NCBI GenBank assembly: GCA_030390025.1 | Contig: CM059432.1 | Span: 94,304,001 to 94,368,000, forward strand | Reading direction: 5' to 3' | From: Squalus acanthias | Taxonomy: Eukaryota | Length of the DNA: 64,000 nucleotides | Position numbers and translations under genes: made by a program | In this document: in pieces, positions 6,010-57,200 of the stretch | How the letters are laid out: each line of letters opens with the position of its first letter | Position numbering within the stretch: the stretch's first letter is position 1 | The notes under the pieces: generated by a model | Database searches by the model: none | What the model was told of the DNA's origin: nothing | Seen by the model: the letters and a program-made list of their open reading frames with translations, nothing else

Positions 6010-9000
6010 TTCAGGGTCATCAGGAGGGGGAGGGCGAACAGCCAGTTGTCGTGGTGCACATAGGCACCAACGATATAGGTAAAAAACGGGATGAGGTCCT
6101 AAAAGCAGAATATAGGGAGTTAGGAGGTAAATTAAAAAAATAGGACCTCAAAGGTAGTAATCTCAGGATTGCTACCAGTGCCACGTGCTCGTCAGAGTAG
6201 AAATAGGAGGATATTTCAAATGAATACGTGGCTAGAGGAATGGTGCAAGGGGGAGGGATTCAAATTCCTTGGACATTGGAACCGGTTCTGGGGGAGGTGG
6301 GACCAGTACAAACGGGACGGTCTGCACCTGGGCAGGGCCGGGACCGATGTCCGAGGGGGAGTGTTTGCTAGTGCTGTTGGGGAGGGTTTAAACTAAAGTG
6401 GCAGGGGGTTGGGAACCTGAACAGGGAGACAGAGGAAAGGGAAACAAGGATAAAAGCAAAAGACAGGAAGGAGAAAAACAAAAGTAGAAGAACTCAACGG
6501 TTTAAATCAAACATGGTCACAGTAAATAATAATTCATATAGGTCTGAGAGCGTTAAAAAAACAAGCCTGAAGGCTTTGTGTCTTAATGCAAGGAGCATTC
6601 GGAACAAGGTGGATGAATGAGCTGCGCAAATAGAGGTAAATGAATACGATTTGATTGGGATTACAGAAACATGGCTCCAGGGTAGCCAAGGCTGGGAACT
6701 CAATATCCAGGGGTATTCAATATTTAGGAAAGATAGGCAAAAAAGAAAGGGAGGTGGGGTAGCATTGCTGGTTAAAGAGGGGAATTAACACAATTGAAAG
6801 GAAGGATAGTAACTCTGATGATGCGGAATCTGTATGGGTAGAACTGAGAAATAACAAGGGGCAGAAAACGTTAGTGGGAGTGGTATATAGACCTCCAAAC
6901 AGTAATACGGAGGTTGAGGACGGCATTAAAAGGGAAATCAGAGAAGCATGCAGTAAGGGCACAGCAGTCATCATGGGTGACTTTAATTTACATATAGATT
7001 GGGCTAACCAAATTAGTAAAAATACTGTGGAGGAGGAATTCCTAGAATGTTTACGGGATGGTTTTCTGGAACAATATGTCGAGGAACCAACCAGAGATCA
7101 GGCCATCTTAGACTGGGTATTATGTAACGAGAAAGGATTAATTAGCAATCTTGTTGTACGAGGCCCCTTGGGTCAGAGTGATCATAATATGATAGAATTC
7201 TTCATTAGGATGGAGAGTGAAGTAGTTGAATCAGAGACTAGGGTCCTGAATTTAAATAAAGGAAACTACGATGGTATGAGGCGCGAATTGGGTAGGATTG
7301 ATTGGGGAATGTCACTCAAAGGGTTGATGGTGGATAGGCAATGACAAACATTCAAAGACTGCATGGATGAACTACAGAATTTGTTCATCCCAGTGTGTCA
7401 TAAGAATAAAACAAAAAGGGTGACTCAACCGTGGCTAACAAGGGAAATTAGGGATAGCATAAGATCCAAGGAGAGGCCATATAAATTGGCCAGAGAAAGC
7501 GGTAACCCTGAGGATTGGGAGCAGTTTAGGATTCAACAAAGGAGGACAAAGGGATTAATTAAGAAGGGGAAAATAGAATATGAAAGTAAGTTTGCAGGGA
7601 ACATAAAAACTGACTGTAAGAGCTTTTATAGATATGTGAAGAGAAAAAGATTAGTGAAATCAAGTGTAGGTCCCTTGCAGTCAGAAGCGGGGGAAGTTAT
7701 AATGGGGAACAAAGAAATGGCAGACCAATTAAATGCAAAGGAGGACACAAATAACCTCCCAGAGATGTTGGAGAACATAGGGTCTGATGAAAGGGAGGAA
7801 CTGAAAGAAATCAGTACTTGCAGGGAAATGGTGTTAGGGAAATTGACGGGATTGAAGGCCGATAAATCCCCAGGGCCTGATAATCTACATCCTAGGGTAC
7901 TTAAGGAAGTGGCCCTAGAAATAGTAGATGCATTGCTGATCATCTTCCAACATTCGATGGAATCTGGAACTGTACCCATGGATTGGAGGGTAGCTAATGT
8001 TACCCCACTATTCAAAAAGGGTGGTAGAGAGAAAGCGGGGAATTACAGACCGGTAAGCCTGACATCGGTAGTGGGGAAAATGCTAGAGTCCATTATAAAG
8101 GATGTAATAGCTGAGCACTTGAAAAACAGTGACAGGATCGGACAAAGTCAACATGGATTTACAAAAGGTAAATTGTGCTTAACTAATCTACTGGAATTTT
8201 TTGAGGATGTAACTGGGAAAATAGATAAGGGAGAACCAGTAGATGTGGTGTATTTGGACTTTCAAAAGGCTTTCGATAAGGTCCCGCATAAGAGATTAGC
8301 GTGTAAAGTTAAGGCACATTGGATTGGGGGTAAGGTATTGACTTGGATAGAGAACTGGTTGGCGGACAGAAAGCAGAGAGTAGGAATTAATGGGTCTTTT
8401 TCCGAGTGGCAGGCAGTGACTAGTGGGGTACCGCAGGAATCGGTCCTTGGACCCCAGCTATTCACAATATACATTAATGATCTAGATAAGGGAACTAAAT
8501 GTAATATCTCCAAGTTTGCAGATGACACAAAGCTGGGTGGACGTGTGTGCTGCGAGGAGGATACTGAGAAACTCCAGGATGATTTGGACAGGTTGGGTGA
8601 GTGGGCAGAAGCGTGGCAGATGCAATATAACGTGGGTAAGTGCGAGGTTATCCACTTTGGTGTCAAAAACAGAAAGGCAGACTATTATCTGAATGGTAAT
8701 AGATTGGGAGAAGGGGAAGTGCAACGAGACCTGGGTGTCCTTGTGCACCAGTCGCTGAAGGTAAGCATGCAGGTGCAGCAGGCGGTGAAGAAGGCAAATG
8801 GTATGTTGGCCTTCATAGCGAAAGGGTTTGAGTATAGGAACAGGGATGTCCTGCTGCAGTTGTACAGGGCCTTGGTGAGACCACACCTTGAGTATTGTGT
8901 GCAGTTTTGGTCGCCTTATCTGAGGAAGGATGTTCTTGCCATGGAAGGAGTTCACCGAAGATTCACAAGGCTGATACCTGGGTTGGCAGGAATGACGTAT

Positions 9001-9447
9001 GAGGAGAGATTGGGTCGATTGGGCTTATACTCGCTGGAGTATAGAAGAATGAGAGGGGATCTCATCGAAACATATAAAATTCTGACAGGTCTGGACAAAC
9101 TAGATGCAGGAAGAATGTTCCCGATGGTCCGAGAGTCCAGAACCAGGGGTCATAATCTAAGGATAAGGGGTAAGCCATTTAGGACAGAAATGAGGAAGGA
9201 TTTCTTCACCCAGAGAGTGGTGAACCTGTGGAATTCTCTACCACAGAAGGTAGTTGAGGCCAAGTCATTAAATATATTCAAGAATGAGTTAGATATATTT
9301 CTTAAAGCTAAAGGTATCAAGGGATATGGGGAGAAGGCAGGTACAGGGTACTGAGTTTGGATGATCAGCCATGATCTCATCGAATGGCGGGGCAGGCTTG
9401 AGGGGCCGAATGGCCTACTCCTGCTCCTATCTTCTATGTTTCTATGT
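6010..9447 (+). mobile_element. CR1 LINE, 5'-truncated within ORF1 (SGNH esterase part of ORF1, ORF2, 3' UTR)
   Basis: ORF1 end has HIGTND and DGLH motifs and stops at 6396. ORF2 has EN motifs (YRPP, GDFN, SDH) and RT motifs. The tail is (TTCTATGT)n. Confidence 0.95.
6511..9354 (+). pseudogene. CR1 ORF2 (endonuclease/reverse transcriptase), interrupted by stops and a frameshift; 7363..9354 still open for 663 aa
   Basis: Motifs KSPGPD, NYRPVSLTS, QHGF, YLDFQKAFD, GVPQESVLGP and FADD. Stops at about 6618 and 7342. Confidence 0.9.
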
Positions 9448-23012: not shown

Positions 23013-24055
23013 GGGCTGGATATTAACTCATAGGAGGGGAGGCTTCGAGTCAGGAAACCTGGAAGTACGGAGGCCAGATAGAATATCGGAAGGCGGAGCA
23101 GGGGGGAGATTAGAGGCCAGAGGCAAGATTGGAGGGCGGAGCTGGGGGGAGATCGGAGGCCAGAGGCAAGATTGGAGGGAGGAGTAGGGGGGAGATCGGA
23201 GGCCAGAGGCAAGATTGGAGGGCGGAGCTGGGGGGAAATCGGAGGCCAGAGGCAAGATTGGAGGGCGGAGCAGGGGGGAGATCAGAGGCCAGAGGCAATT
23301 TGGAGGCCAAAGGCAAGTTCGGAGAGCGGGGAGGTGGGGGGATATCAGAGGCCACAGGCAAGATCGGAGAGCAGAGCAGGTGGGAAATTGGAGGTCAGTG
23401 GCAAGATTGGGGTCCTGAGCGGGGGGAGATCGGAGGCCAGAGGCAAGATTGGAATCCAGAGCTGGGGGGGGGGGGGGGGCGGGGGGGGGGGAGGGTGAGA
23501 TCTGAGGCCAGAAGGCAGATCGGAGGCCAGAGGAAAGATTGGGGTCCGGAACAGGCAGGGTGATTTGAGGCCAGAGGCAATATCAGAGGCCAGGGTTGGG
23601 GGTAATTGGAGGCCTCGTGGAGGTGATTGGAAGCGTCAGAGTGGGCGGGGGGGGGAGGGTAGAGATCAGAAGAGTTGGGAGTAGATCGGAAGGGTCAGGG
23701 ATGTCCGACTGTGTTGGAGTTGATGAAGCAGGTAAACTGGATCCAGCAGGTAAGTGGAAAGGCACTTATCTTCTGTATCCAGCAGATCTCGCCTCCTTTT
23801 AGCCGCCTCGTTTCCTGAGGCTCGGAAAACTCAGCCAGCCAGGGTTAAATTTAAAATGGTGGTTAAATATGAGGCACGCAGCGTCATTGTAATATTTAAA
23901 TTGCCAACCAGCTCCTGGGAGGGTTTGGTTGACGGCACCCGTTAAAACCGGAAATGGGCGGGTTGGAGGCAAGTTGGGGTTGTGATTCAGATTTTTAACA
24001 TTTTAACATCCCACCTGACCCAAACCCGCCCATTTTTGGGGGTTAAAATTCCCCC
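23013..24055 (-). mobile_element. Harbinger-type MITE, family C copy 1, containing a G-rich minisatellite
   Basis: Termini GGGCTGGATATT / AAAATTCCCCC with TSD CAT. The right end is the reverse complement of the start of 60587-62284. Confidence 0.75.
23085..23595. repeat. About 43-bp G-rich minisatellite
   Basis: Unit GAGATCGGAGGCCAGAGGCAAGATTGGAGGGCGGAGCTGGGGG, repeated about 10 times and decaying to the right. Confidence 0.9.
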
Positions 24056-27764: not shown

Positions 27765-29690
27765 GTAGAATCATAGAATGGCTACAGCACAGAATGAGGC
27801 CTTCTGCCCGTCGAGCCCGTGCCAGCTCTCTGCAAGAGCACTTCAGCTAGTCCCACGCCCCGCCCTTTCCCTGTAGCGCTGCAAATTTATTTCCTTCAGG
27901 TACTTATCCAATTCCCTTTTGAAAGCCACGATTGAATCTGCCTCCACCACCCTTTTAGGCAGTGCATTCTAGATCCTAACCACTCACTGTGTAAAAAAGT
28001 TTTTCCTCATGTCGCCTTTGGTTCTTTTGCCAATCTCCTTAAATCTGTGTCCTCTGGTTCTCCACGCTTCCGCCAATGGGAACAGTTTCTCTCTATCTAC
28101 TCTGTCTCAACCCCTCATGATTTTGAACACCTCTATCAAATCTCCTCTCAACCTTCTCTGCTCTAAGGAGAAGAACCCCAGCTTCTCCAGTCTATCCACG
28201 TAACTGAAGTTCCTCATCCATGGAATCATTCTCCTAAATCTTTTCTGCACCCTCTCTAAAGCCTTCACATCCTTCCTAAAGTGCGGTGCCCAGAATTGGA
28301 CACAATACTCCAGTTGAGGCCGAACCAGTGTTTTATAAAGGTTCATCACAACTTCCTTGCTTTTGTACTCTATGCCTCTATTTATAAAGCCCAGGATCCC
28401 GTATGCTTTTTTAACCGCTTTCTCAACCTGCCCTGCCACCTTCAACAATTTGTGCACATATACCCCCAGGTCTCTGTTCATGCACCCCCTTTAGGATTGT
28501 ACCCTTTAGTTTATATTGCCTCTCCTCGTTCTTCCTACCAAAATGTATCACTTCGCACTTTTTTGTATTAAATTTCATCTGCTACGTGTCCGCCCATTTC
28601 ACCAGCCTGTCTATGTCTTCTTGAAGTCTATCACTATCCTCCTCACTGTTCACTATACTTCCAAGATTTGTGTCATCTGCAAATTTTGTAATTGTGCCCT
28701 GTACACCCAAGTCCAAGTCATTAATATATATGAAGAAGTGGTCCTGGTACCGACCCCTGGGGAACACCACTGTATACCTTCCTCCATTCTGAAAAACAAA
28801 CCGTTCACCACTACTCTCTGTTTCCTGTCACTTAGCCAATTTTGTATCCATGCTGCCACTGTCCCTTTTATTCCATGGGCTTCAACTTTGCTGGCAAGCC
28901 TATGATGTGGCACTTTATCAAACGCCTTTTGGAAGTCCATGTCCACCACATCAACCGCATTGCCCTCATCACCCCTCTGTGTTACCTCATCAAAAAATGG
29001 AATCAAGTTAGTTAAACATGATTTGCCTTTAACAAATCTGTGCTGGCTTTCCTTAATTAATCCACACTTGTCCAAGTGACTGTTAACTTTGTCCCTGATT
29101 ATCATTTCTAAAAGCTTCCCCACTACCGAGGTTAAACTGAGTGGCCTGTAGTTGCTGGGTTTATCCTTACACCCTTTTTTAAACAAGGGTGTAACATTTG
29201 CAATTCTGCAGTCCTCTGGCACCACCCCCGGTATCTAAGGAGGATTTGAAGATTATGGCCAGTACCTCAGCAATTTCCTCCTTAACTTCTCTCAGCATCC
29301 TAGGATGCATCCCATCTGGTCCTGGTGACTTATCTACTTTAAGTACAGACAGCCTTTCTAGCACCTCCTCTTTATCAATTTTTATCTCATCCAGTATCTC
29401 CACTACCTCCTCTTTCACTAAGACTTTGGCAACATCTTCCTTGGTGAAGACAGATGCAAAGTACTCATTTAGTACCTCAGCCATGCCCCCTGCCTCCATG
29501 CGTAGGTCTCCTTTTTTGTTCCTAATCGGCCCCACCTCTCCTCTCACTACCTGTTTATTATTTATATGCCTATAGAAGACTTTTGAATTCCCTTTTATGT
29601 TAGCTGCCAGTCTATTCTCATACCCTCTCTTTGCCCCTCTTATTTCTTTTTCACTTCCTCTCTGAACTTTCTATAGTCAGCCTGATAAAG
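27765..29690 (-). mobile_element. CR1 LINE, second subfamily, 5'-truncated
   Basis: ORF pieces 28107..29547 (KSPGPDG, NYRPLSLTS, DFQKAFD, FADD) and an (ATTCT)-type tail. Confidence 0.92.
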
Positions 29691-43300: not shown

Positions 43301-46300
43301 AATTATACAAAATTGACTTTTATCACTTATAAAACCTTTTTTTAAAAAACAAATTTTTTAATCAATTATGTTTTTGGATGAAACTCATACTTGTCAAGAT
43401 TACTGTGTAATTTTACGAATCCATGCTCCTGGCAGGAAGACTTGCCTGCTGGGACTGCATATTACAAATTCGGATGCACACTGTCCACGATTTTCCAGTC
43501 ATTATTTTTAATAAAATTACCCCCTTCATGAAAATCCTGCTGGATCAATGGCGAGACAGGCTTTGCACCTGCCCATCTTGATGAGTGCTGACCCAAAGTC
43601 AGGCTCATTTGCATGCCGGCAGCTGGTTCCTAGCAGTACGTGCATCACTGTGCCTTCTGTCTCAGGCAGGGGTTGGGGAGGAGTTAAATGGCTGCGGCAT
43701 CACTTTGGGTATTCAACAACTACCGCCCCTCCGGTGAAAGCTCTCCAGAGTGGTGACAGATGCTGGGAACCCAAAATCGGTAAAAGCAGGGCACAAAATA
43801 CAGCCTAGGAGTCCACTTTTGGCAGAAATCTGTCACATTGCATGTTCTATTACTGTCACAGCCACAATCTGACGTATTTTCTGCTATTCATTAATATTGG
43901 CGTAGTTACAAAGTGGTGAAACTGGCAACATGTACTCAGGTGGAAATAGTCGAGAGGCAAACAAACAGAAGGTAGTGCAGGGCATAACATTTATTAGTCA
44001 AACTTGTACTTAAGCTTATCTGCATGGCATAGCCATTTGTCTGCGGCAATCATACATCATAGCCAATAGCTGGTACAATTTAATGTAATTATCCTCTATA
44101 TAGTGGTTACCACTGTATTCTGTACTACAGACACTTAGTCCAGCCAATTATGGACTTTCTTTGACTCTTCTACACAAGTGAAATTGTCAATCATCATTAA
44201 TTGCTTCCATCATTTGCGATTCCTGATTAGTGTAGAGAATGACAGTACCACCCAGGTAGCAGATGACGATCTTGAGTTTGTGGAATGATTGATTAAAGAC
44301 GTCAGAGCTATCAATCAATGAGTCTCTGTTAACAGATTTGTACATGAACTTTGACCTAGGTATGCTCAAGTAAAGGACTGGAAAAATTACCATACAAAAA
44401 AATAGCAGATCGTTAAGAAATGTCAAGACAATTGAAACAGTGAATCAGAGGAAGCAATTCATTAAATCATTGAAAGCATTCATGTTGGACCATCACATCA
44501 GCTTTCATATATACAACTGTCAATCAGACATTCCATCTGTATATAGTGGTCGGGTCACCTGGAAATTACTGCTAATCCAGCGACATCCTTTCCATCCTAG
44601 AAAACTAACAAACCAACAGCTTCAAAAAAATTGACACAGCCTCCAAGAAGCTGACAACTCAACAACAGTCCTGATTATGCGCCCATGACATGTGAAAATG
44701 ACCTTGTAACTAAAGCTGTTGGTGCACTCAATGTTCGTTCACTTATATTAGAATAAAACATAACTACATGAAAACATGCAGGGAGAAGTCCAAATGTGGA
44801 CGGCATAAAATGTGTGGTGCATTTCTAGATGGTCCAGGCTCACAGAATCATAGAATGGTTACAGCACAGAAGGAGGCCATTCGGCCCATCGAGCCCATGC
44901 CGGCTCTCAGTAAGAGCACTTCAGCTAGTCCCACTCTCCCGCACACTCCCCTGCCTCCACCATCCTTTCAGGCAGTGCATTCCAGATCCTAACCACTCGC
45001 TGTGTAAAAAAGTTTCCCCTCATGTTGTCTTTGGTTCTTCTGTCAATCACCTTAAATCTGTGTCCTCTGGTTCTCGACCCATCTGCCAATGGGAACAGTT
45101 TCTCTCTATCTACACCCCTCATGATTTTGAACACCTCTATCAAATCTCCTCTCAACCTTCTCTGCTCTAAGGAGAACAACCTCAGCTTCTCCAGTCTATC
45201 CACGTAACTGAAGTCCCTCATCCCTGGAAACATTCTTGTAAATCTTTTCTGCACCTTCTCTAAGGCCTTCACATACTTCCTAAAGAGCAGTGCTCAGAAT
45301 TGGACACAATACTCCAGTTGAAGCCGAACCAGCGTTTTATAAAGGTTCATCATAACTTCCATGCTTTTTTACTCTATGCATCTATTTATGAAGCCCAGGA
45401 TCCCGTATGTTTTTTTTAACCGTTTTCTCAACCAGCCCTGCCACCTTCAATGATTTGTGCACATATACCCCCAGGTCTCTCTGTTCATGCACCCCCTTTA
45501 GAATTGTACCCTTTAGTTTATATTGCCTCTCCTCGTTCTTCCTACCGAAATGTATCACTTTGCACTTTTCTGCATTAAATTTCATCTGCAACGTGTCTGC
45601 CCATTCCACCAGCCTGTCTATGCCCTCTTGAAGTCTACCACTATCCTCCTCACTGTTTACTATACTTCCAAGTTTTGTGTCATCTGCAAATTTTGAAATT
45701 GTGCCCTGTACACCCAAGTCCAAGTCATTAATATATATCAAGAAAACCAGTGGTCCTAGTAGCGACACCTGGGGAACACCACTGAATACCTTCCTCCAGT
45801 CCGAAAAACAACCGCTCACCACTAGTCTCTGTTTCCTGTCACTTAGCCAATTTCGTATCCATGCTGCCACTGTCCCTTTCATTCCATGAGCTTCAAATTT
45901 GCTGGCAAGCTTATTATGAGACCGGAAGGAGCGGACCTGGAGGGAGCACAGTGAGAGCGGAGCAGTTAAAAGGAGCATTCCCGAGTGGCAGTAGCCTGAG
46001 ACCGGAAGGAGCGGACCTGGAGGGAGCACAGCGAGAGCGGAGAAGTTAAAAGGAGCGGCAGCAACTCAACAGAGGCAGTTTTTGAAAAAGTGACGTCAGA
46101 GTAAAAAATGTGACATTGGCACAAGGGAAGGAACTGATTGGTGAGTAGCTGGTGAATGTTTTTTGTTAAGTTTTAAGTTTATTTCTGCAGAGTTAGTTCT
46201 TAGTCTATTAAATAGAGGCATGGCAGGGCAGCTCAATCCTGTGGAGTCCTGGATGCTTCACGTAGCCTGGACGACCACATGTGCAGGAAGTGTCACCAGC

Positions 46301-48267
46301 TACAGCAACTCAAGCTCCGGAGATTGAGCGGCGGCTGGAGTCACTGCGGTGCATCCGCGAGGCTGAGAGTTACGTGGATAGCACGTTTCTAGAGGTGGTC
46401 ACCCCGCAGCTTAAGAGTTTGCAGGCAGAGAGGGAATGGGTGACCACCAGACAGAAGAGGAGGACCAGGCAGATAGTGCAGGAGTCCCCAGCGTGTATCG
46501 CGCTCTCCAACCAGTATTCTGTTCTGAGTACTGGTGAGGGCGATGGTTCCTCTGGGGAGTGCAGCCAGAGTCAAGTCCATGGCACCACGGGTGGCTCAGC
46601 TGCACAGAGGGGGAGGAAAAAGAGTGGAAGAGCAATAGTGGTATGGGATTTGATAGTTAGGGGAGCAGACAGGCGTTTCTGCGGCCGTAGACATGACTCC
46701 AGGATGGTATGTTGCCTCCCTGGTGCCAGGGTCAAGGATGTCACTGAGCGGCTGCAGGACACTCTGAGGGGGGAGGGTGAACAGCCAGAGGTCGTTGTCC
46801 ATATTGGTACCAACGACATAGGCAGAAAGAGGGATAAAGTCCTGCAGGCAGAGTTTAGGGAGCTAGGAGAGACATTAAAAGCAGGACCTCAAAGGTAGTA
46901 ATCTCCGGATTACTCCCGGTGCCACGTGCTAGTGAGTACAGGATTAGGAAGATAGAACAGATGAAAGATTGGCTGGAGAGATGGTGCAGGAGGGAGGGCT
47001 TTAGATTCCTGAGGCATTGGGACCGTTTCTGGGGAAGGTGGGACCTGTACAAGCCGGACGGGTTACACCTCAACAGAGCTGGGACCAATATTCTCGCGGG
47101 GAGGTTGGTTAGTGCTGTTGGAGAGGGTTTAAACTAACTTGGCAGGGGGATGGGCACCAGCATATAGGAGTAGCAAAGAGGAATAAGGTGTCAAGGATCG
47201 CAAGCTTCAACAACTCTTGGACACCAACGCCCCTCCGGAACCTTCTTCCCCTTCACTTTCTCTGACCCCCCTTCTCCCAATCTCATCCCCTGCCGCGTTT
47301 TCACTATCCCCTCTGACCTTCCCCTCTCTGACTCCGAACGATCAGTCCTCAGCAAAGGCCTGAGCTTCATCCCCTTACACCCCCACCTCAATGAATTTCG
47401 AGCTCGGCACGATGCTGAGCTCTTTTTCCGCCGCCTCCGTCTCCGTGCCCACTTCTCTGGCCAGGAGTCTTCCCCCCGCACGGCTGACCCTTTCTCCCGC
47501 TTTCAGAATTCTCGTTCCACCTGGACCCCTCCCTCTGGCCTCTTACCCTCTCTAGATCTTTTCATTGCAAACTGCCGCCGTGACATTGGCCGTCTCCATT
47601 TCTCTGCTCCCCTCTCTCACTCCAACCTACCTCCCTCTGAACTTGCAGCACTCCATTCTCTCAGATCCAACCCCGACATTGTCATTAAACCTGCTGACAA
47701 GGGTGGTGCTGTTGTTGTTTGGCGAACCGACCTCTACCTAGCGGAAGTTGAACGCCAACTCTCCGACACCTCCTCCTACCTCCACCTGGACCATGACCCC
47801 ACTACAGAACATCAAGCCACTGTGTCCAAGACTGTCACTGACCTCATCTCCTCTGGAGATCTTCCCCCCGCGGCCGCCAACCTCATAGTTCCCCAACCCC
47901 GCACAGCCCGCTTCTACCTCCTTCCCAAGATCCACAAACAGGACTGCCCTGGTAGACCCATCGTTTCAGCCTGCTCTTGCCCCACGGAACTTATCTCTTC
48001 CTATCTCGATTCTATTTTTTCTCCCCTTGTCCAGTCCCTTCCCACCTACATCCGCGATTCCTCTGACGCCCTCCGCCACTTTAACAGTTTCCAGTTTCCT
48101 GGCCCCAACCGCCTCCTTTTCACCATGGACGTACAATCCCTCTACACCTCCATCCCCCACCAGGATGGCCTGAGGGCGCTCCGCTTTTTCCTTGAACAGA
48201 GGCCCGACCAGTCCCCATCCACCGCCACCCTCCTCCGCCTGGCTGAACTTGTTCTCACATTGAACAA

Positions 48268-48461
48268 TGTCGTAAGAATGAGCCTTACGCGTGGTGAACT
48301 TAAAGTAAGCTTTAATCAACTAAAAAGGTGCTACATACAAAAGAGGTCTTACTCTATGCCTCTCCAGGATCCAACTGCTCAGTCCAGTATTTATCCTGGA
48401 CTAATCACAGGAAGTGATGCAATAAAGTTCGAGTCACAGGAAGCTGTATTGTGTTACCACA
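48268..48461 (-). repeat. 3' LTR of Gypsy
   Basis: Identical by eye to 52515-52708. Confidence 0.97.
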
Positions 48462-48479
48462 TTCTCCCCCCCCAAAAGA

Positions 48480-51400
48480 TTAGGAGGCCGGGATGCTCCC
48501 TCCATTTCGTAGCCGCCGGACGAGGGAGAGCCGCACCCGTTTGGGTTCTCGTAGCGGTAGAGGGCCCCTAGCCCGTTTACCCGCCGCGGGCCGTGGACCA
48601 GAGTCCGAGTGATCCAGCCCGCTCTGAGGGGGGTCAGGACGATCCTGACTGTGTACTGGTGCCCGAACGGGTGTCGGGCAGGGCTGTGGCAGATCCGTTT
48701 CCGAGCGTATGGTACGGGGTGGATCGTGGCTGCGCGTGCGAGCCCCGACGGGCTCATAGTCAGTCTGCCCCAGGTCGGCACGCTGGAGTGAGGTACCAGC
48801 CGGCGTCAGATCCAGATCGTGATGAGAGGCACCTGGCGAGCCCAGAGATGTGCCTGGTACAATATCATCCCCTGGTGTCCCTCTATGTTTCGGCGGGCAG
48901 GGAGCCAGATCCCGCAATGACACGGTAGATTCCCGACCGTCAGGATACCGAATATAGGCGTAGGTAGGGTTGACGTCAGTGAGCTCAACCTCATCTACCA
49001 GGGGGTCATTCTTAGACGCCCGGACATATCTTCGGAGTAGCACTGGTCCCGGTGCAGTCAGCCACGACGGGAGAGATATCCCATAGGATGAGCGACGCTG
49101 AAATCGGAAGAACCGTTCATGAGGCGTCGTATTTGTGGCGGTCGAAAGGAGGGACCGTGTGGAGTGTAATGCGTCTGGAAGTACTGCTTCCCATTGCTGG
49201 TTGGGTAGGCCCCGAGATCTCAAAGCCAGACGTACCGCATTCCAGATGATAGCGTTAAAACGCTCGACTTGCCCATTCCCGACCGGATGATAAGGCGTCG
49301 TTCTGCTGGCAGCAATACCCCGTTCCGAGAGATAGGCCTTGAGTTCTCCTGACATAAAAGAAGGGCCCCGATCCGAATGAACATAGGATGCCATGCCACA
49401 GAAAGCAAATACCTGCTCAAGGCAGCTGATAACCGTGGTCGTCAGCATATTGGGGCAGGGAAAGGCAAACGGAAAACGGGAATACTCATCGACCATGGTC
49501 AATAGATAAGTGTTGCGAGTTGAAGAGGGCAACGGCCCCTTAAAATCGATGCTAAGCCGTTGCATTGGCTGGGTCGCATGTATGAGTATACCACCCGAGG
49601 GGCGGAAAAACTGAGGTTTCAATTCCGCACAGACTCTGCAGTCCGAGCACATCTTCTTTACATCCCCGGTAGAGAATGGGAGATTTCGGGACCGCACGAA
49701 GTGTAGCATGCGAGTAACGCCCGGATGACACAACCCATCATGGATGTCTACGAGTGTAGAGGGTGCCATGGCGGAGCAGAATGCTCGTGTGAGGGTATCC
49801 GGAGCCACATTCTCCTTGCCAGGTCGATAGTGGATGGTGTAACCAAAAGAGGCCAATTCCAGCCGCCAAAGCTGGATTTTATTATTTTTAATTTTGGTCC
49901 GTTTTCGATTATCGAGCATGAAGGCGACCGATCGCTGGTCCGTGATTAAGGTAAAGTGCTGGCGAGCTAGGAGATGAGTCCACTTCCGTACTGCCTCTAT
50001 GATGGCTGTAGCTTCTTTCTCGACTGGAGGATAATGTAGCTCAGCCCCTTGAAAAGTCCTGGACAAAAATGCCACCGGACGACCTTCCTGATTCAGAGTG
50101 GCCGAGATCGCCACCTCCGAGGCATCACACTCAACAACAAAAGGAAGACTCTCATCGATGGAGTGAAGAGCCGCTTTCTCCAACTGTTTTTTCAGGAGGT
50201 TAAAGGCTGCAACAGCCGCTGTGTCTAGTGGGAATGTGCTGGCCTTCAGTAGAGGTTGGATTCGGTCAGAGAAGTTAGGAATCCATTTAGCATAGTATGC
50301 AAACAGGCCGAGGGCCCGGCGCAAGGAGGCCGGATTCTTAGGTGGCGGGAGCTCTTGGAGTGGGCGAAGCCTTTCAGGGTCAGGTTTAATGATGCCATTG
50401 CCCACACAATAGCCAAGGATGTTGATGGTTGGTTGTGACTCAATGGATTTAGCCGCATTTAATGTCAAATTACGGTGCTGGAGTGCATCCCAAAATCGTT
50501 GGAGATTGGCGTCATGTTCCCGCTGATTGCGACCTGCGACAGTAATATTGTCCAGATAAGGAAACGTATCCTTCAAATCTTCCTGTTTGACCAGGTCATC
50601 CATTGCTCGCTGGAAGACAGCCACTCCATTAGTGACCCCAAAGGGGAGGCGACGAAATTGATACAGCCGTCCATTGGCTTCAAAGGCCGTATACTGCTTG
50701 TCTGAGACCTTCAAGGGTACCTGATGATAGGCACTTTTCAGATCATATGTTGAGAACACCGTGTACTCAGCCAGTTTATTAACCATATCATCGATGCGCG
50801 GCAATGGGTATGCGTCCAAGTCCGTATATTGATTGATGGTCTGTGAATAGTCAATGCACAGCCGTTTCTTGTGAGGTTGTAGAGGGTTCTTAACAATAAC
50901 GACCTGGGCGCGCCATGGCGACGAACAAGGCTCGATGGTATCCTCTACTAAAAGCCGAGAAATCTCAGCCGCAATAAAAGACTGGTCTTCCTGACTGAAA
51001 CGTCGTGACTTTGTTATAATCGGTTTGCATCGAGGAGGAATACTGGTAAACAGTGAGGGTTCATCCAGTGAAGCTGCTGACAATGCACAGAACGGTAATC
51101 GAGGTCGTATATTAGAAATAGTGAGTTCAGGTTTGGATCCGCCGAACTCAATGGTGAGTTTCTTATGCTGCTTTTGAAAATCCAGCCCTAAGATAAGATC
51201 ACTACATAAGTCCTTGAGCACCGAAAGCCGGGTGGAGGGATACCTGCGACCATTAAGTGTTATTTCAACCATACAAAAGCCAGAAATTCTGGTATTAAGT
51301 GATGACTGAGCCATCGCAATTGCCTGGTCCGATGGGAAAACATGTAGCTTTAACTCTGCAACAATCTGTTCCCTAATGAAACTATCAGTGCTACCTGAGT

Positions 51401-52436
51401 CAATTAAGGCATCTAAAGTATGTCCATTAATTGATGCTTTTGTAGCTGCATGGAATAGGTTCTGAGGACAAGCAGCTGTAATTGGTGTCGTTGCACAAAG
51501 AGTGGCTGAAACTCTAGGTGTGTTTCTTCGAGAGAAAACCCGAGAGGAAGCACGATAGATTTTAGCCGGAACATCTTGATAGGCCCTTACCGGGGCAGTT
51601 CGGTAGGACTTAGCTTGATAAGCCCTCGTAGAGGCTCTTGATAGGCAAACCTTTGCAAAATGACCCTTTTTGTTGCAATGACTGCAAAACGCATTGCGAG
51701 CAGGGCAGAATTTCCGAGGGTGAAACTCATCACCACAAAAGAAGCATTTCTTAGATTGCCAAGAGGCTGCCACAGTGGGGTCATCATCCTCTTCATCAGT
51801 GAAGTCATCAGATTGATCGTCAGGGATAAAGTCCTCCCTAATAGAGTTCACCTGTGGCCTCTTAAATTGCCTGACTGTAGTTAAGGCAGCAGACCGAGGT
51901 CTGGGCACTGTATAAAGGTCTGCATTTCTTTTTGCCAGATCTAGAGAGCAAGCCATGTCATAAGCTCTCTGAAGCTCAAGTGTCTTACTTTCCAGTAGAT
52001 GCTGGCGTATAAATGGGGAGGCAAGCCCGCAGATGAAAGCATCACGGATCATTTCTTCACGGTACAGCTCAGCTGAGGCCGCCTGAAAGTTACAGTCCAT
52101 ACTAAGTCTGCGAAGCTCTTGGAGGAATTTATCAATGGATTCCTCCGGCCCTTGTTGGGCTGTAGCTAGTAGATGTCTGGCATAGACCTCATTCGGTGTC
52201 TTAGTATATAGTCTTTTAAGCGTCCGAATTGCCTCCTCGTAACTGCCCCATTCCTCAACATACTGAAATACATTCGGAGTGACACAGTTGATGAGTATCC
52301 GCAACTTTGTGTCATCATCAGCCTTGCAATATTCGAGAAAATTGTCAAACGTGCGATACCAGTGTTTCCACACCTTACCGGCTGCTGGGGTGTTTGGTTC
52401 CAAGTCAAGACGCGATGGTTTAAGGATGTTTTCCAT
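48480..52436 (-). CDS. Gag-Pol polyprotein, 1318 aa (Gag with zinc knuckles, protease, RT, RNase H, integrase)
   Basis: Motifs CFFCGDEFHPRKFC/CSHCNKKGHFAKVC, LIDSGS, RLCIDY, LPFG, YLDN, CDAS..EKE..TDQ, HHCC, IDFKGP..SDRG..VERFN. The domain order is Gypsy-type. Confidence 0.96.
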   Translation of the reverse strand: MENILKPSRLDLEPNTPAAGKVWKHWYRTFDNFLEYCKADDDTKLRILINCVTPNVFQYVEEWGSYEEAIRTLKRLYTKTPNEVYARHLLATAQQGPEESIDKFLQELRRLSMDCNFQAASAELYREEMIRDAFICGLASPFIRQHLLESKTLELQRAYDMACSLDLAKRNADLYTVPRPRSAALTTVRQFKRPQVNSIREDFIPDDQSDDFTDEEDDDPTVAASWQSKKCFFCGDEFHPRKFCPARNAFCSHCNKKGHFAKVCLSRASTRAYQAKSYRTAPVRAYQDVPAKIYRASSRVFSRRNTPRVSATLCATTPITAACPQNLFHAATKASINGHTLDALIDSGSTDSFIREQIVAELKLHVFPSDQAIAMAQSSLNTRISGFCMVEITLNGRRYPSTRLSVLKDLCSDLILGLDFQKQHKKLTIEFGGSKPELTISNIRPRLPFCALSAASLDEPSLFTSIPPRCKPIITKSRRFSQEDQSFIAAEISRLLVEDTIEPCSSPWRAQVVIVKNPLQPHKKRLCIDYSQTINQYTDLDAYPLPRIDDMVNKLAEYTVFSTYDLKSAYHQVPLKVSDKQYTAFEANGRLYQFRRLPFGVTNGVAVFQRAMDDLVKQEDLKDTFPYLDNITVAGRNQREHDANLQRFWDALQHRNLTLNAAKSIESQPTINILGYCVGNGIIKPDPERLRPLQELPPPKNPASLRRALGLFAYYAKWIPNFSDRIQPLLKASTFPLDTAAVAAFNLLKKQLEKAALHSIDESLPFVVECDASEVAISATLNQEGRPVAFLSRTFQGAELHYPPVEKEATAIIEAVRKWTHLLARQHFTLITDQRSVAFMLDNRKRTKIKNNKIQLWRLELASFGYTIHYRPGKENVAPDTLTRAFCSAMAPSTLVDIHDGLCHPGVTRMLHFVRSRNLPFSTGDVKKMCSDCRVCAELKPQFFRPSGGILIHATQPMQRLSIDFKGPLPSSTRNTYLLTMVDEYSRFPFAFPCPNMLTTTVISCLEQVFAFCGMASYVHSDRGPSFMSGELKAYLSERGIAASRTTPYHPVGNGQVERFNAIIWNAVRLALRSRGLPNQQWEAVLPDALHSTRSLLSTATNTTPHERFFRFQRRSSYGISLPSWLTAPGPVLLRRYVRASKNDPLVDEVELTDVNPTYAYIRYPDGRESTVSLRDLAPCPPKHRGTPGDDIVPGTSLGSPGASHHDLDLTPAGTSLQRADLGQTDYEPVGARTRSHDPPRTIRSETDLPQPCPTPVRAPVHSQDRPDPPQSGLDHSDSGPRPAAGKRARGPLPLREPKRVRLSLVRRLRNGGSIPAS

Positions 52437-52514
52437 GATGGGTGATTCCCTGGATCCTTAGTTCCGAGTTCGTCCAAAAAGTTTGAGTGCGAAGTTTTTC
52501 AAAGTTGATTAAAT

Positions 52515-52708
52515 TGTCGTAAGAATGAGCCTTACGCGTGGTGAACTTAAAGTAAGCTTTAATCAACTAAAAAGGTGCTACATACAAAAGAGGTCTTACT
52601 CTATGCCTCTCCAGGATCCAACTGCTCAGTCCAGTATTTATCCTGGACTAATCACAGGAAGTGATGCAATAAAGTTCGAGTCACAGGAAGCTGTATTGTG
52701 TTACCACA
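52515..52708 (-). repeat. 5' LTR of Gypsy
   Basis: Identical by eye to 48268-48461. It contains a TATA-like GATAAATA inside a 7-bp hairpin and ATTAAA on the sense strand. Confidence 0.97.
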
Positions 52709-54206
52709 AACAACTTCTCCTTTGACTCCACTCATTTCCTCCAAATCAAAGGTGTTGCTATGGGTACCCGCATGGGTCCTAGTTATGCCTGCCTTTTCGT
52801 GGGATATGTGGAACACTCTTTGTTCCAGTCCTACTCGGGTCCCCGACCTCACCTCTTTTTCCGGTACATTGACGACTGTATCGGTGCCGTTTCCTGCTCT
52901 CGCCCTGAACTAGACAATTTCATTCACTTTGCCTCCAATTTCCACCCTTCCCTCACCTTCACATGGTCCATCTCCGACTCTTCCCTCCCCTTCCTCGACT
53001 TCTCCGTCTCCATCTCTGGGGATAGGTTATTGACCAACATTTACTACAAGCCCACTGACTCCCACAGCTACCTGGACTACACTTCCTCCCACCCCGCCTC
53101 CTGTAAGGACTCTATTCCCTTCTCCCAGTTTCTCCGTCTCCGCCGCATCTGCTCCGACGATGCCACCTTCCATACCAGTGCTTCCGACATGTCTTCCTTT
53201 TTCCTCAACCGAGGATTCCCCTCTACCGTGGTCAACACGGCCCTCGACCGTGTCCGTTCCATCTCCCGCACTTCTGCCCTCACCCCGGCCCCTCCCTCCC
53301 GGAACCACGATAGAGTTCCCCTTGTCCTCACCTTTCACCCCACCAGCATCCACATTCAACGGATCATCCTCCGCCATTTCCGCCACCTCCAACGTGATCC
53401 CACCACCAAACGTATCTTCCCCTCACCTCCCCTTTCAGCATTCCGTAGGGACCGCTCCCTCCGAGACACCCTAGTCCACTCCTCTATCACCCCCAGCACC
53501 CCTTCCCCTTCACCCGGCACCTTCCCGTGCAAGCGCAGGAGATGCAACACCTGCCCTTATACATCCCCCCTTCCCACTCTCCAGGGCCCCAAATACCCCT
53601 TCCAGGTGAAACAGTGATTTACTTGTACTTCTTGCAATCTAGTATACTGTATTCGCTGCTCACGATGTGGTCTCCTCTACATTGGGGAGACCAAACGCAG
53701 ATTGGGTGACCGCTTTGCGGAACACCTCCGTTCAGTCCGGAAGGGTGACCCCGAGCTTCCGGTCGCTTGTCATTTTAATTCACCCCTCCACGCTCACTCA
53801 GACCTCACCGTCCTCGGCCTCTTGCATTGTTCCACGGAAGCGCAGCGTAAGCTCCAGGAACAGCACCTCATCTTCCGTTTAGGCACTTTACAGCCTTCCG
53901 GACTCAATATCGAGTTCAACAATTTCTGATCATAACCCCGGCCCCTACCACATATGTATACATTTTATCCACTCTTTTGGTCCGTGCCTTTTTCCTTTTT
54001 TTCTCTCTCCCCCCCCACGGCAGCTGTCTCTGATTCTGCCAGCATTTCACACCTTACCTTTTGTTTCTCAACCTGTCCCATTACCATCTCGTCTTGCCTT
54101 GAGCATCTCTCAATTTCTCTACTCACTAAAGACCATCCCTTTTGTTCTTTTATTCCTCCCCCCAGCCTCCCCCTTGCATTTTTATCTGTTTATTTCTTGC
54201 TCTCTC

Positions 54207-54242: not shown

Positions 54243-57200
54243 CTCTTTCTCTCTCCACGGATGTTGCCTGGCCTGCTGAGTTTTTCCAGCTTTTTCTGTT
54301 GTTATTTCGGATTTCCAGCATCCGCAGTATTTTGCTATCGTAAAGAGTGCGTGTGTTGGATAGTACTAGAGAAGATAGTACTAGAGGCGGTGGTAGTACC
54401 ATATTAGATAGGAGCAGACTAGAAAGACTACGAAAAATTCAAAAATGGGTTTAGAATGCATGTACGTAAACGCACAAAGTGTGGTGAATAAGGTTGGTGA
54501 GCAACAAGCACAATCAGCTGTGTGGCAATATGATGTTGTGGCAATAACGGAAACGTGGCTTAAAAACAGTGAGGACTGGGCACTTAATATTCAAGGGTAC
54601 AAGGTGTTCAGAAAAGATAGGGAAGGAAAAAAGGGAGGTGGGGTGGCAGTGCTGATTAAAGAAGACATTGTAGTGTTGGAAAGGGAGGATGATCCTGAGG
54701 GGACAAGGAAAGAATCCATTTGGTTAGAGTTGAGGAGCAAAAAGGGTATGATTACGCATATTCGGGGTCTCCAAATAGTGAGAGAGAGGTAGAGGAGCAA
54801 ATCTGCAGGGAAATCACAGAGATATGCAAGAGCTATAGAGTGGTGATATTGGGGGACTTTAATTACCCAAATATCGATTGGGATAATGCTAGGGTAAAAG
54901 GAAAGGAGGGGGAGGAATTTCTGAAATGTGTTCAGGAGAATTTCCTTGACCAATATGTTCTTGGCCTAACTAGGAAGGAGGCATTGCTGGATCTGGTGCT
55001 GGGGAATGAGGTGGGCCAGGTCGACCAAGTGTCTGTGGGAGAACACTTGGGTACGAGTGATCATCGTATCATAAGATTTAGATTAGCAATGGAGAGGAGC
55101 AAGGAGCAATCTAGAGTGGAACTTCTAAACCGGAATAGGGCTAACTTCAATGGGATGCGAAAGGATCTAACCAGGGTAAAATGGAACCAAAGACTGACAG
55201 GAAAAACTGCAACGGAACAATGGGTGATCTTTAAGGAGGAGATGTTCCAAGTACAGGCTAGGTACATTCCACCAAGAGGGAAGGGTAAGGGAACCAACGC
55301 AAGGGCTCCTTGGAATACGAGGGAGATAGAGAAGATGATGAAACAAAAAAAGAGGGTGTATGATGCATGTCAGGTGAATTCTTCAAGGGAGAACCAGACC
55401 AACTACAATAAGTTGAGAGGGAATGTGAAGATGAAAATAAGATTGGCAAAGAGAGAATATGAGAGTAGAATGGCGGTTAACATAAAAGGGAACCCAAAAA
55501 TCTTCCACCAGCATGTGAACAGTAAGCAGGAAGTAAGAGGTGGGGTGGGGCCTATCAGAGAGAAAGAGGGTGATATATGCTTAGAGGTGCAGGGCAAGGC
55601 TAGAATACTCAATGAGTACTTTGTATCGGTGTTTACTAAGGAGGTGGATGCTGACAAAATATTGGTAGAAGTGGAAAAGGTAGAAGCAATGGAAGAGGTG
55701 AAAATTGATAGACAGGATGTATTAGAAAGGCTGGGTATGCTTACAGCGGACAAGTCGCCTGGTCCAGATGGCTTGCATCCCAGGTTGCTAAGGGAATTGG
55801 GGGAGGAGATAGCGGAAGGGCTTGCCATAATTTTCCAATATTCCCTCAATGCGGGGGAGGTGCCTGAGGATTAGAAAGTGGCAAATGTGACACCATTGTT
55901 CAAGAAAGGGTGTAAGGACAATCCTTGTAACTACAGGCCGGTCAGTTTAACATCAGTGGTGGGTAAAGTTTTAGAAACAATAATCAAGGAAAAAATTAAC
56001 GGGCATTTGGAGAGGTTTAAGCTAATTAAGGAGAGCCAACATGGGTTTGTAAAAGGAAGATCGTGTTTGACTAATCGAATTGAATTTTTTGATGAAGTAA
56101 CAAAGAGGATTGATGAACGGAATGCAATGGATGTTGTCTACATAGATTTTCGGAAGGCGTTTGATAGAGTACCACATAGAAGGCCAGTTAACAAAATTGA
56201 GGCTCATGGAATAGGTGGGTCAGTGGCAGCTTGGATAAGGAATTGGCTTAAGGACAGAAAATAGCGAGTTGTGGTAAATGGCTGTTTTTCAGACTGGAGG
56301 ATGGTAGACAGTGGTGTTCCCCAAGGGTCAGTGCTGGGGCCACTGCTTTTTTTGATATATATAAATGACCTGGATATTGGAATACAGAGTAGAATTTCTA
56401 AATTTGCTGATGTCACCAAACTTGGGGGTGTGGCAAACAGTGATGATGATATCAATTGACTGCAACAGGACATAGAAAGACGAGCAGAATGGGCAGACAA
56501 GTGGCAGATGGAATTTAATACAAAGAAGTGTGAGGTGATGCATTTTGGCAGAAGGAACAGGGAGAGGCAATATACACTTAATGGCACAGTTTTAAAGAGT
56601 GTGCAGGGACAGAGGGACCTGGGAGTTAATGTGCATAGGTCCCTGAAGGTGGCAGGACATATTGAGAGAGTGGTTAACAAAGCATATGGGATCTTGGGCT
56701 TCATAAATAGAGGTATTGAGTACAAAAGTAGAGAAGTTATGCTGAACCTTAAAAAGCGCTGGTTTGGCCACAACTGGAGTATTGAGTCCAGTTCTGGTCA
56801 CCACACTTTAGGAAGGATGTGAAGGCCCTTGAGAGGGTACAGAGGAGATTTACCAGAATGGTTCCGGGGATGGTGGATCTCAGCTACAAGGACAGGTTGG
56901 AGAAGCTGGATTTGTTTTCATTAGGGCAAAGGAGTTTGAGGGGTGATTTGATAGAGGTGTACAAGATTATGATGGGTTTGGATAGGCTTGACGGGGAAAG
57001 GCTGTTCCCACTAGTTGATGGTACAAGGACTAGGAGACACAGATTTAAGGTTCTGGGCAAGAAATACAGGGGGGACGTGAGGAAAAACTCTTTTACGCAG
57101 GGAGTGGTGAGGACCTGGACCTCGCTGCTGACCGAAGTGGTGGAAGCGGAGACACTCAATGTTTTCAAGGGGAGACTGGATAGGCACTTGAGGGAAATAA

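Follow-up and report, generated by a model that had tools for sequence, protein, structure and literature searches.

Pairing between the primer site and the LTR of a Gypsy element in Squalus acanthias points to self-primed reverse transcription

A Gypsy retrotransposon in the Squalus acanthias genome carries, in place of a tRNA-type primer-binding site, a short complement of its own LTR, which raised the question of how the element primes reverse transcription. The stretch of DNA analysed, hereafter the window, comprised 64,000 nucleotides (assembly GCA_030390025.1, contig CM059432.1, positions 94,304,001 to 94,368,000). The element is an intact copy of 4,441 bp with a single Gag-Pol frame and occupies window positions 48268-52708 on the minus strand. 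Its main features are as follows.

52515 to 52708, minus strand: 5' LTR, 194 bp, TG...CA, 100% identical to the 3' LTR
48268 to 48461, minus strand: 3' LTR, 194 bp, carrying a second copy of the LTR arm
52709 to 52713, minus strand: left copy of the target-site duplication, 5 bp, TTGTT
48263 to 48267, minus strand: right copy of the target-site duplication, 5 bp, TTGTT
48462 to 48473, minus strand: polypurine tract, preceding the 3' LTR
48480 to 52436, minus strand: Gag-protease-RT-RNase H-integrase in a single frame of 1,318 amino acids (translation and Pfam)
51645 to 51746, minus strand: two CX2CX4HX4C zinc knuckles of Gag, seen in the translation

The element showed the direct TG...CA LTRs, the polypurine tract, the target-site duplication and the Pfam domain order (protease, RT, RNase H, integrase) of the Ty3/Gypsy group, and the solved structure nearest to its RT was that of Ty3 (E 3.2e-52). 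An earlier sequence-only reading had described a Gag with two knuckles and an element without a chromodomain. Both CCHC knuckles were indeed present in the translation, and a Pfam search of the frame returned no chromodomain at E 0.1 and no Tf2-type SH3 domain; the chromodomain family PF00385 was also absent from the domain annotations of the best 120 relatives listed. Of 844 candidate matches to the element in its own genome, 40 were scored, and all of these showed 100% identity over 309 bp; the family is therefore young, abundant and recently multiplied. Searches with Gag in this 3.7-Gb genome gave about 5,650 candidates and revealed two sister families. One locus (L333, G000:C1:565500-575400) consisted of a head-to-tail array of elements with shared LTRs at a spacing of 4,247 bp, three LTRs being visible, and such an array is a possible source of read-through RNA.

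The window is rich in interspersed repeats. The element interrupts an RT frame on the plus strand (47174-48267 and 52709-53929) that continues to a GIY-YIG-like motif and that we take, from its motifs, to be Penelope-like; Pfam gave no match on these two flanking frames. Fragments of non-LTR retrotransposons with endonuclease or RT domains lie at 6763-9354 and 54699-55874 on the plus strand and at 28656-29234 and 45385-46065 on the minus strand, and a G-rich tandem repeat with a 43-nt unit is present at 23058-23614.

On the minus strand, the 5' LTR ends with CA at 52515 and is followed by a single A at 52514 and then by TTTAATCAACT at 52513-52503. The exact complement of this 11-mer, AGTTGATTAAA, lies at 52568-52558, corresponding to LTR nt 141-151, and pairing of the two encloses a loop of 44 nt.

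52503 to 52513, minus strand: primer-binding-site position, an 11-mer from 2 nt past the LTR end, not TGG, with the same start in relatives
52558 to 52568, minus strand: LTR arm, nt 141-151, complementary to the primer-site 11-mer, ending in ATTAAA; predicted 3' end of the self-primer

When re-read, the perfect complementarity and the 44-nt loop reported by the sequence-only reading were exact, and so was its statement that a tRNA-type site is missing, as the LTR end is followed by A-TTT and not by TGG. Its remark that the arm overlaps a poly(A) signal held as far as the letters go, since the arm does end in ATTAAA; the role of this motif in polyadenylation is presumed. The primer-site/arm pair (11 bp) exceeded every other perfect inverted repeat in the 315 nt upstream of Gag, and 20 shuffles of the same region gave a longest repeat of 7.35 bp on average and 10 bp at most; the complementarity thus exceeds chance. 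In RNA folding, 10 of the 11 arm pairs had a probability of at least 0.84, alike when folding started from LTR nt 1 or from nt 97. A perfect 11-bp arm match was kept in 54 of 60 copies in the same genome. Two separate insertions of the third family (L035 and L036) had a common primer site in which two changes produce two mismatches to the LTR arm.

A mature tRNA can serve as primer with its 3' end only when TGG follows the LTR, and with no TGG at this place a mature tRNA end is not expected to be the primer. For comparison with other parts of tRNAs, the host set comprised 63 genes scored by Rfam search, from which 50 stretches gave 42 ARAGORN calls; against the 18 distinct calls, which represent 4 isotypes only, the best match anchored at the primer end was 5-6 nt. 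An internal tRNA stretch, as in half-tRNA priming, is argued against by the covariation of the primer site with the element's own LTR, described below.

Covariation was analysed in relatives of the element. Inverted repeats were sought in 93 loci (80 from metagenomes and 13 from genome bins) and in the window; the Gag start was present in 36 loci, three of which had too little upstream DNA, leaving 33 scored. The animal-type retrotransposons of this kind found in bacterial genome bins (L171-L183) are probably host contamination. Perfect inverted repeats upstream of Gag reached a length of 11-18 bp in 22 of the 33 loci, 10 bp in 2 and 9 bp or less in 9, against shuffle means of 6.75-8.3 bp, with shuffles of some regions reaching 10-13 bp. 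A second test was anchored on the LTR end alone and used 23 rows, one per family or variant with the two sister families added; near-duplicates (L094, L097, L123, L150, L161 and L164) and loci in which the inverted-repeat scan had found no repeat (L114, L140, L151, L152, L156 and L165) were left out. Pairing from position +2 with the own LTR extended over 10-18 bp in 19 of the 23 rows and over less than 10 bp in the 5' LTR of the other 4. The mean pairing was 11.9 bp with the own LTR and 5.6 bp with the LTRs of other rows, and the observed sum was reached in none of 100,000 permutations, a result that is no true probability because the permutations ignore relatedness. The start of the primer site was fixed at 2 nt past the LTR end across the relatives, and the 23 rows contained 12 distinct 10-nt primer sites, with changes on both sides at positions +4 to +15. 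Within one family, L091 differed from L094, L100 and L123 by a single change matched in both arms, and three families of the S. acanthias genome had kept both arms despite diverged LTRs. Compensatory changes of the two 11-mers, which the sequence-only reading had proposed to look for, were therefore found (19 of 23 rows, 12 primer-site sequences), and the two arms change together across distant relatives.

The second line of evidence came from broken copies. A cut template should end the first DNA strand at the cut, and faulty transfers should then break there; we therefore searched the S. acanthias genome with a pattern for breaks at LTR nt 151/152, the 3' edge of the arm, and obtained 15 matches in 9 insertions, 8 of which had perfect 5-bp target duplications. 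Six of the nine carried the deletion in both LTRs, four joining LTR nt 1-20 to nt 152 and two joining nt 132 to nt 154, and the presence of a deletion in both LTRs points to an origin at reverse transcription. Control windows at nt 96-104 (9 positions) and nt 156-166 (11 positions) gave 8 and 10 matches, respectively; of these 18, 7 were true rearrangements, each in one LTR only, and 11 were point changes or 1-nt indels. Breaks in both LTRs thus numbered 6 in 2 positions versus 0 in 20 control positions, and they fit a first DNA strand that halted where the RNA was cut.

52557 to 52559, minus strand: predicted RNA cut point, LTR nt 150-152, on the arm's 3' edge; prediction based on 9 broken insertions elsewhere in the genome versus controls

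The same breakpoint pattern gave 0 matches in the larger sister family. The LTR holds 13 microhomologies of at least 5 nt, and nt 151 lies within one of them. A duplicated segment, a subfamily marker, was common to five of the six two-LTR deletions, so that the events may not all be independent; the four copies without TATA box and poly(A) signal are, for their part, unlikely to be parents of one another. A subfamily (L228, L231, L232, L237, L245 and L250) has, upstream of the 3' LTR, a duplication made up of a polypurine-like tract and LTR nt 1-40, and most of the aberrant copies derive from it. In the remaining three of the nine insertions (L240, L241 and L242), an inverted LTR start was joined at nt 151. 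These three are LTR-sized with 5-bp target duplications, and the inverted LTR start is accompanied by 2 nt that agree with the polypurine tract's end, which suggests a 2-nt extension on an unprocessed DNA end.

A further class of aberrant copies, found with two search patterns at five loci that represent four events, consisted of the LTR end, the A, and then a reverse complement running from the arm's 3' end. The arm was missing from both LTRs of L218 and L219, which rules out a strand folded back on itself; the source of their inverted copy was either another molecule or an attached primer. In L218, 49-56 nt were copied upstream from the arm's end, to nt 96-103 (the end is blurred by microhomology), which is close to the transcription start predicted from a TATA-like box at nt 67. 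The copy in L219 reached LTR nt 35 (117 nt), and those in L224 and L225, 297 and 1,623 nt long, began at the 3'-LTR arm, crossed U3 and the polypurine tract and entered the internal region. Three of the four inverted copies pass the predicted start, and a short 5' primer can account for these only if read-through occurred or the 3' arm was used. Alternatively, in each of the four the plus strand could have been transferred wrongly to the arm on a second RNA molecule. The inverted copies show that the RT uses the arm/primer-site pairing, and they leave the length of the primer free.

The LTR also holds a predicted promoter.

52635 to 52642, minus strand: LTR nt 67-74, TATA-like box and predicted promoter; transcription expected to start at about LTR nt 97-103 (52612-52606)

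In the three S. acanthias families the TATA-like box was located at nt 67, 69 and 62; the arm ends 84-102 nt downstream of it, and from this conserved position transcription is predicted to begin about 45 nt ahead of the arm. No reads came from the one raw-read RNA run; three contig sets covered the element, in contigs that reveal neither RNA ends nor strand. Judged from this predicted promoter, the arm is probably not formed by the first bases of the transcript, and the geometry would differ from that of Tf1.

Self-priming from a stretch of the element's own LTR, which we regard as likely, is supported jointly by the compensatory changes among relatives and by breakpoints that coincide with the arm's 3' edge. 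The sequence-only reading, which had proposed self-priming after the manner of Tf1, is in this respect borne out by covariation and breakpoints; the Tf1-like geometry that it assumed is probably wrong in view of the TATA-like box. In the mechanism that we propose, transcription would begin near LTR nt 97-103 and the arm would pair with the primer site over the 44-nt loop, after which the RNA would be cut at nt 150-152, probably by the RNase H domain of the element as in Tf1, leaving a 3'-OH on the arm. The first DNA strand would then copy only about 44 nt (U5 and a short R) before its transfer to the 3' LTR, and slipping of this transfer onto short look-alike sequences would produce the deleted LTRs observed. 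The plus strand would copy the attached arm, by which the primer site would be regenerated and the arms would stay matched, and rare overshoots of the plus strand would give the inverted copies. A primer of about 50 nt would permit such overshooting, so some trimming or stop would be needed. The same pairing in the 5' LTR may have a second role in hiding the ATTAAA signal. If self-priming operates, the usual primer would somewhat more probably be the 5'-LTR arm cut in cis than anything else; the 3'-LTR arm, or either arm, is a clearly weaker candidate, and some other arrangement of the primer would be surprising. As a whole, the picture of a widespread animal Gypsy clade in which tRNA-free priming evolved independently of Tf1, with an internal RNA cut at the edge of a duplex by which a poly(A) signal is also concealed, a primer far longer than the paired stretch, the arm of either LTR usable, and a primer site rewritten in each cycle so that the arms co-evolve, is offered tentatively, and we would expect at least part of it to fail.

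Self-priming could also follow the strict geometry of Tf1, with the arm at the extreme 5' end of the transcript and a primer of 11-15 nt. So short a primer would stop plus-strand copying correctly with no trimming, the paired length of 10-18 bp in relatives resembles the 11 nt described for Tf1 (PMC7175516), and the breakpoints at nt 151/152 fit this geometry equally well. However, the TATA-like box lies 74-90 nt upstream of the arm start in three families, no TATA-like box was seen 30 nt upstream of the arm, and the L218 copy, with its 49-56 nt from the arm's end, extends close to the start predicted from the box; we therefore consider this geometry unlikely. About equally doubtful is priming by the 3'-LTR arm, in which the 3' end of the RNA, cut or ending at nt 151, would pair with the primer site. 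This would account for the L224 and L225 copies, which start at the 3'-LTR arm and enter the internal region, and for the extension of L219 to nt 35, but breakpoints would be predicted at the transcript start rather than at nt 151/152, and the control window at that start contained none in both LTRs. Moreover, tandem arrays with shared LTRs such as L333 could give long read-through primers if the 5' arm is used, and the 5' arm is only 44 nt away from the primer site.

Self-priming also has to be weighed against a hairpin that only masks the poly(A) signal of the 5' LTR, or acts as another RNA switch, while a host RNA primes. Such a role agrees with the ending of the arm in ATTAAA or AATAAA in most rows, with a tRNA comparison that spanned 4 isotypes only, and with the mismatched primer site common to two insertions. 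On the other hand, pairing persists in relatives with GTTAAA or TTTAAA at the end of the arm, L093 has a separate AATAAA downstream, a single host primer cannot suit 12 primer-site sequences, each of them matched to its own LTR, and a displaced hairpin gives the breakpoints at nt 151/152 no reason; masking as the sole function thus seems improbable. Chance complementarity, for which the A/T-rich 11-mer and the 10-13 bp reached by shuffles of some regions might speak, is refuted by the covariation, along with the fixed position and the conservation at about 50% protein identity, and we give it practically no weight.

Self-priming from the element's own LTR, if true of this clade, which lacks a chromodomain, numbers thousands of copies in a single vertebrate genome and is spread over animal phyla, would constitute a second natural self-priming system. 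Annotation tools that need a tRNA match will mis-annotate such elements, self-primed elements would presumably lack the site used by tRNA fragments for silencing, and the broken copies predict the cut point to the nucleotide. No account of self-priming in this clade was found in the literature searched, which included few subscription journals and did not extend to Repbase. Entries on self-primed Gypsy families in animal genomes are said to exist in Repbase Reports, and our claim of novelty is lowered accordingly. The result also bears on whether tRNA priming arose early or late in the history of LTR elements, a question raised in PMC3601003, and on the frequency of priming switches.

The relatives, at 46-66% polyprotein identity, were mostly unnamed; the source names given were those of crustaceans, cnidarians, a nematode, a fluke and a shark. 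A quick tree of 41 rows was built without Tf1, sushi or Mag references and without L125 and L176, which were too short, and in it 33 rows formed a single group (SH-aLRT 100, branch 1.63) that excluded three elements with a TGG site (L179, L180 and L183; tRNA-site elements with about 30% RT identity). The three families of the S. acanthias genome were grouped with invertebrate rows in this tree, and the RT-RNase H region (window 49758-51020) was 67-70% identical to proteins of prawn, mantis shrimp and soft coral and 58% identical to that of catshark. On these identities, horizontal transfer of the element is possible. A search for Tf2-type SH3 elements gave only distant RTs of 25-28% identity, with an RT match in 7 of 15 regions; a search for the sushi-type Gag family, run without a positive control, gave no match, no relative of the element was found among viral contigs, and the Atlas returned only generic Gag clusters. 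Motif searches for a clade name in the supplements of PMC6238403 and PMC8556966 and in full texts likewise gave no match in the parts of these sources covered.

Experimental work on self-primed reverse transcription has mainly concerned Tf1 of fission yeast, with predictions in a few related or plant lineages (PMC7175516, PMC6317226). In Tf1, the RNA's first 11 bases anneal to the primer site and RNase H makes its cut between bases 11 and 12 (PMC7175516, PMC4600332), and this cut at the duplex edge matches the position of the breakpoints in our element. Like the present element, Tf1 and Tf2 of Schizosaccharomyces pombe and Tj1 of S. japonicus are Ty3/Gypsy elements with no tRNA site and a primer site that pairs with the RNA of their own LTR, and complementarity of the primer site to the own LTR, which is characteristic of Tf1/sushi elements, was found here as well. 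Unlike the Tf1/sushi chromoviruses, the element has two CCHC knuckles and neither a chromodomain nor a Tf2-type SH3 domain. With no chromodomain and an isolated RT clade, an origin independent of Tf1, as the sequence-only reading had suggested, is plausible.

Two knuckles in Gag are a trait of Mag elements. The Mag lineage of Gypsy is described as having LTRs of 119-304 bp, target duplications of 4-5 bp, often one frame, and primer sites for tRNA-Leu, -Ser or -Arg (PMC3286476); the short LTRs, the 4-5-bp target duplication and the single frame are shared by our element, but such a tRNA site is not. The Saci-2/lennie clade of flatworms also has a single Gag-Pol frame, and its primer sites are variable (PMC12471100), whereas its CCCH Gag motif (PMC2582038), 4-bp target duplications and tRNA assignments differ from those of the element. 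Identity with Saci-2 was rejected on the two CCHC knuckles and the 5-bp duplication. In the Conserved Hairpin Site of the fungal GalEa elements (Copia), a hairpin replaces the tRNA site as it does here, but both of its arms lie downstream of the LTR, whereas one arm of our element is inside the LTR (PMC5445492). Self-priming has also been predicted from sequence in the Tcn1 clade (Gypsy) and the TAR lineage (Copia), TAR being a case in which it was proposed in an unrelated lineage (PMC6317226); these are plant and fungal lineages, whereas the clade described here is, by the source names listed above, found in animals.
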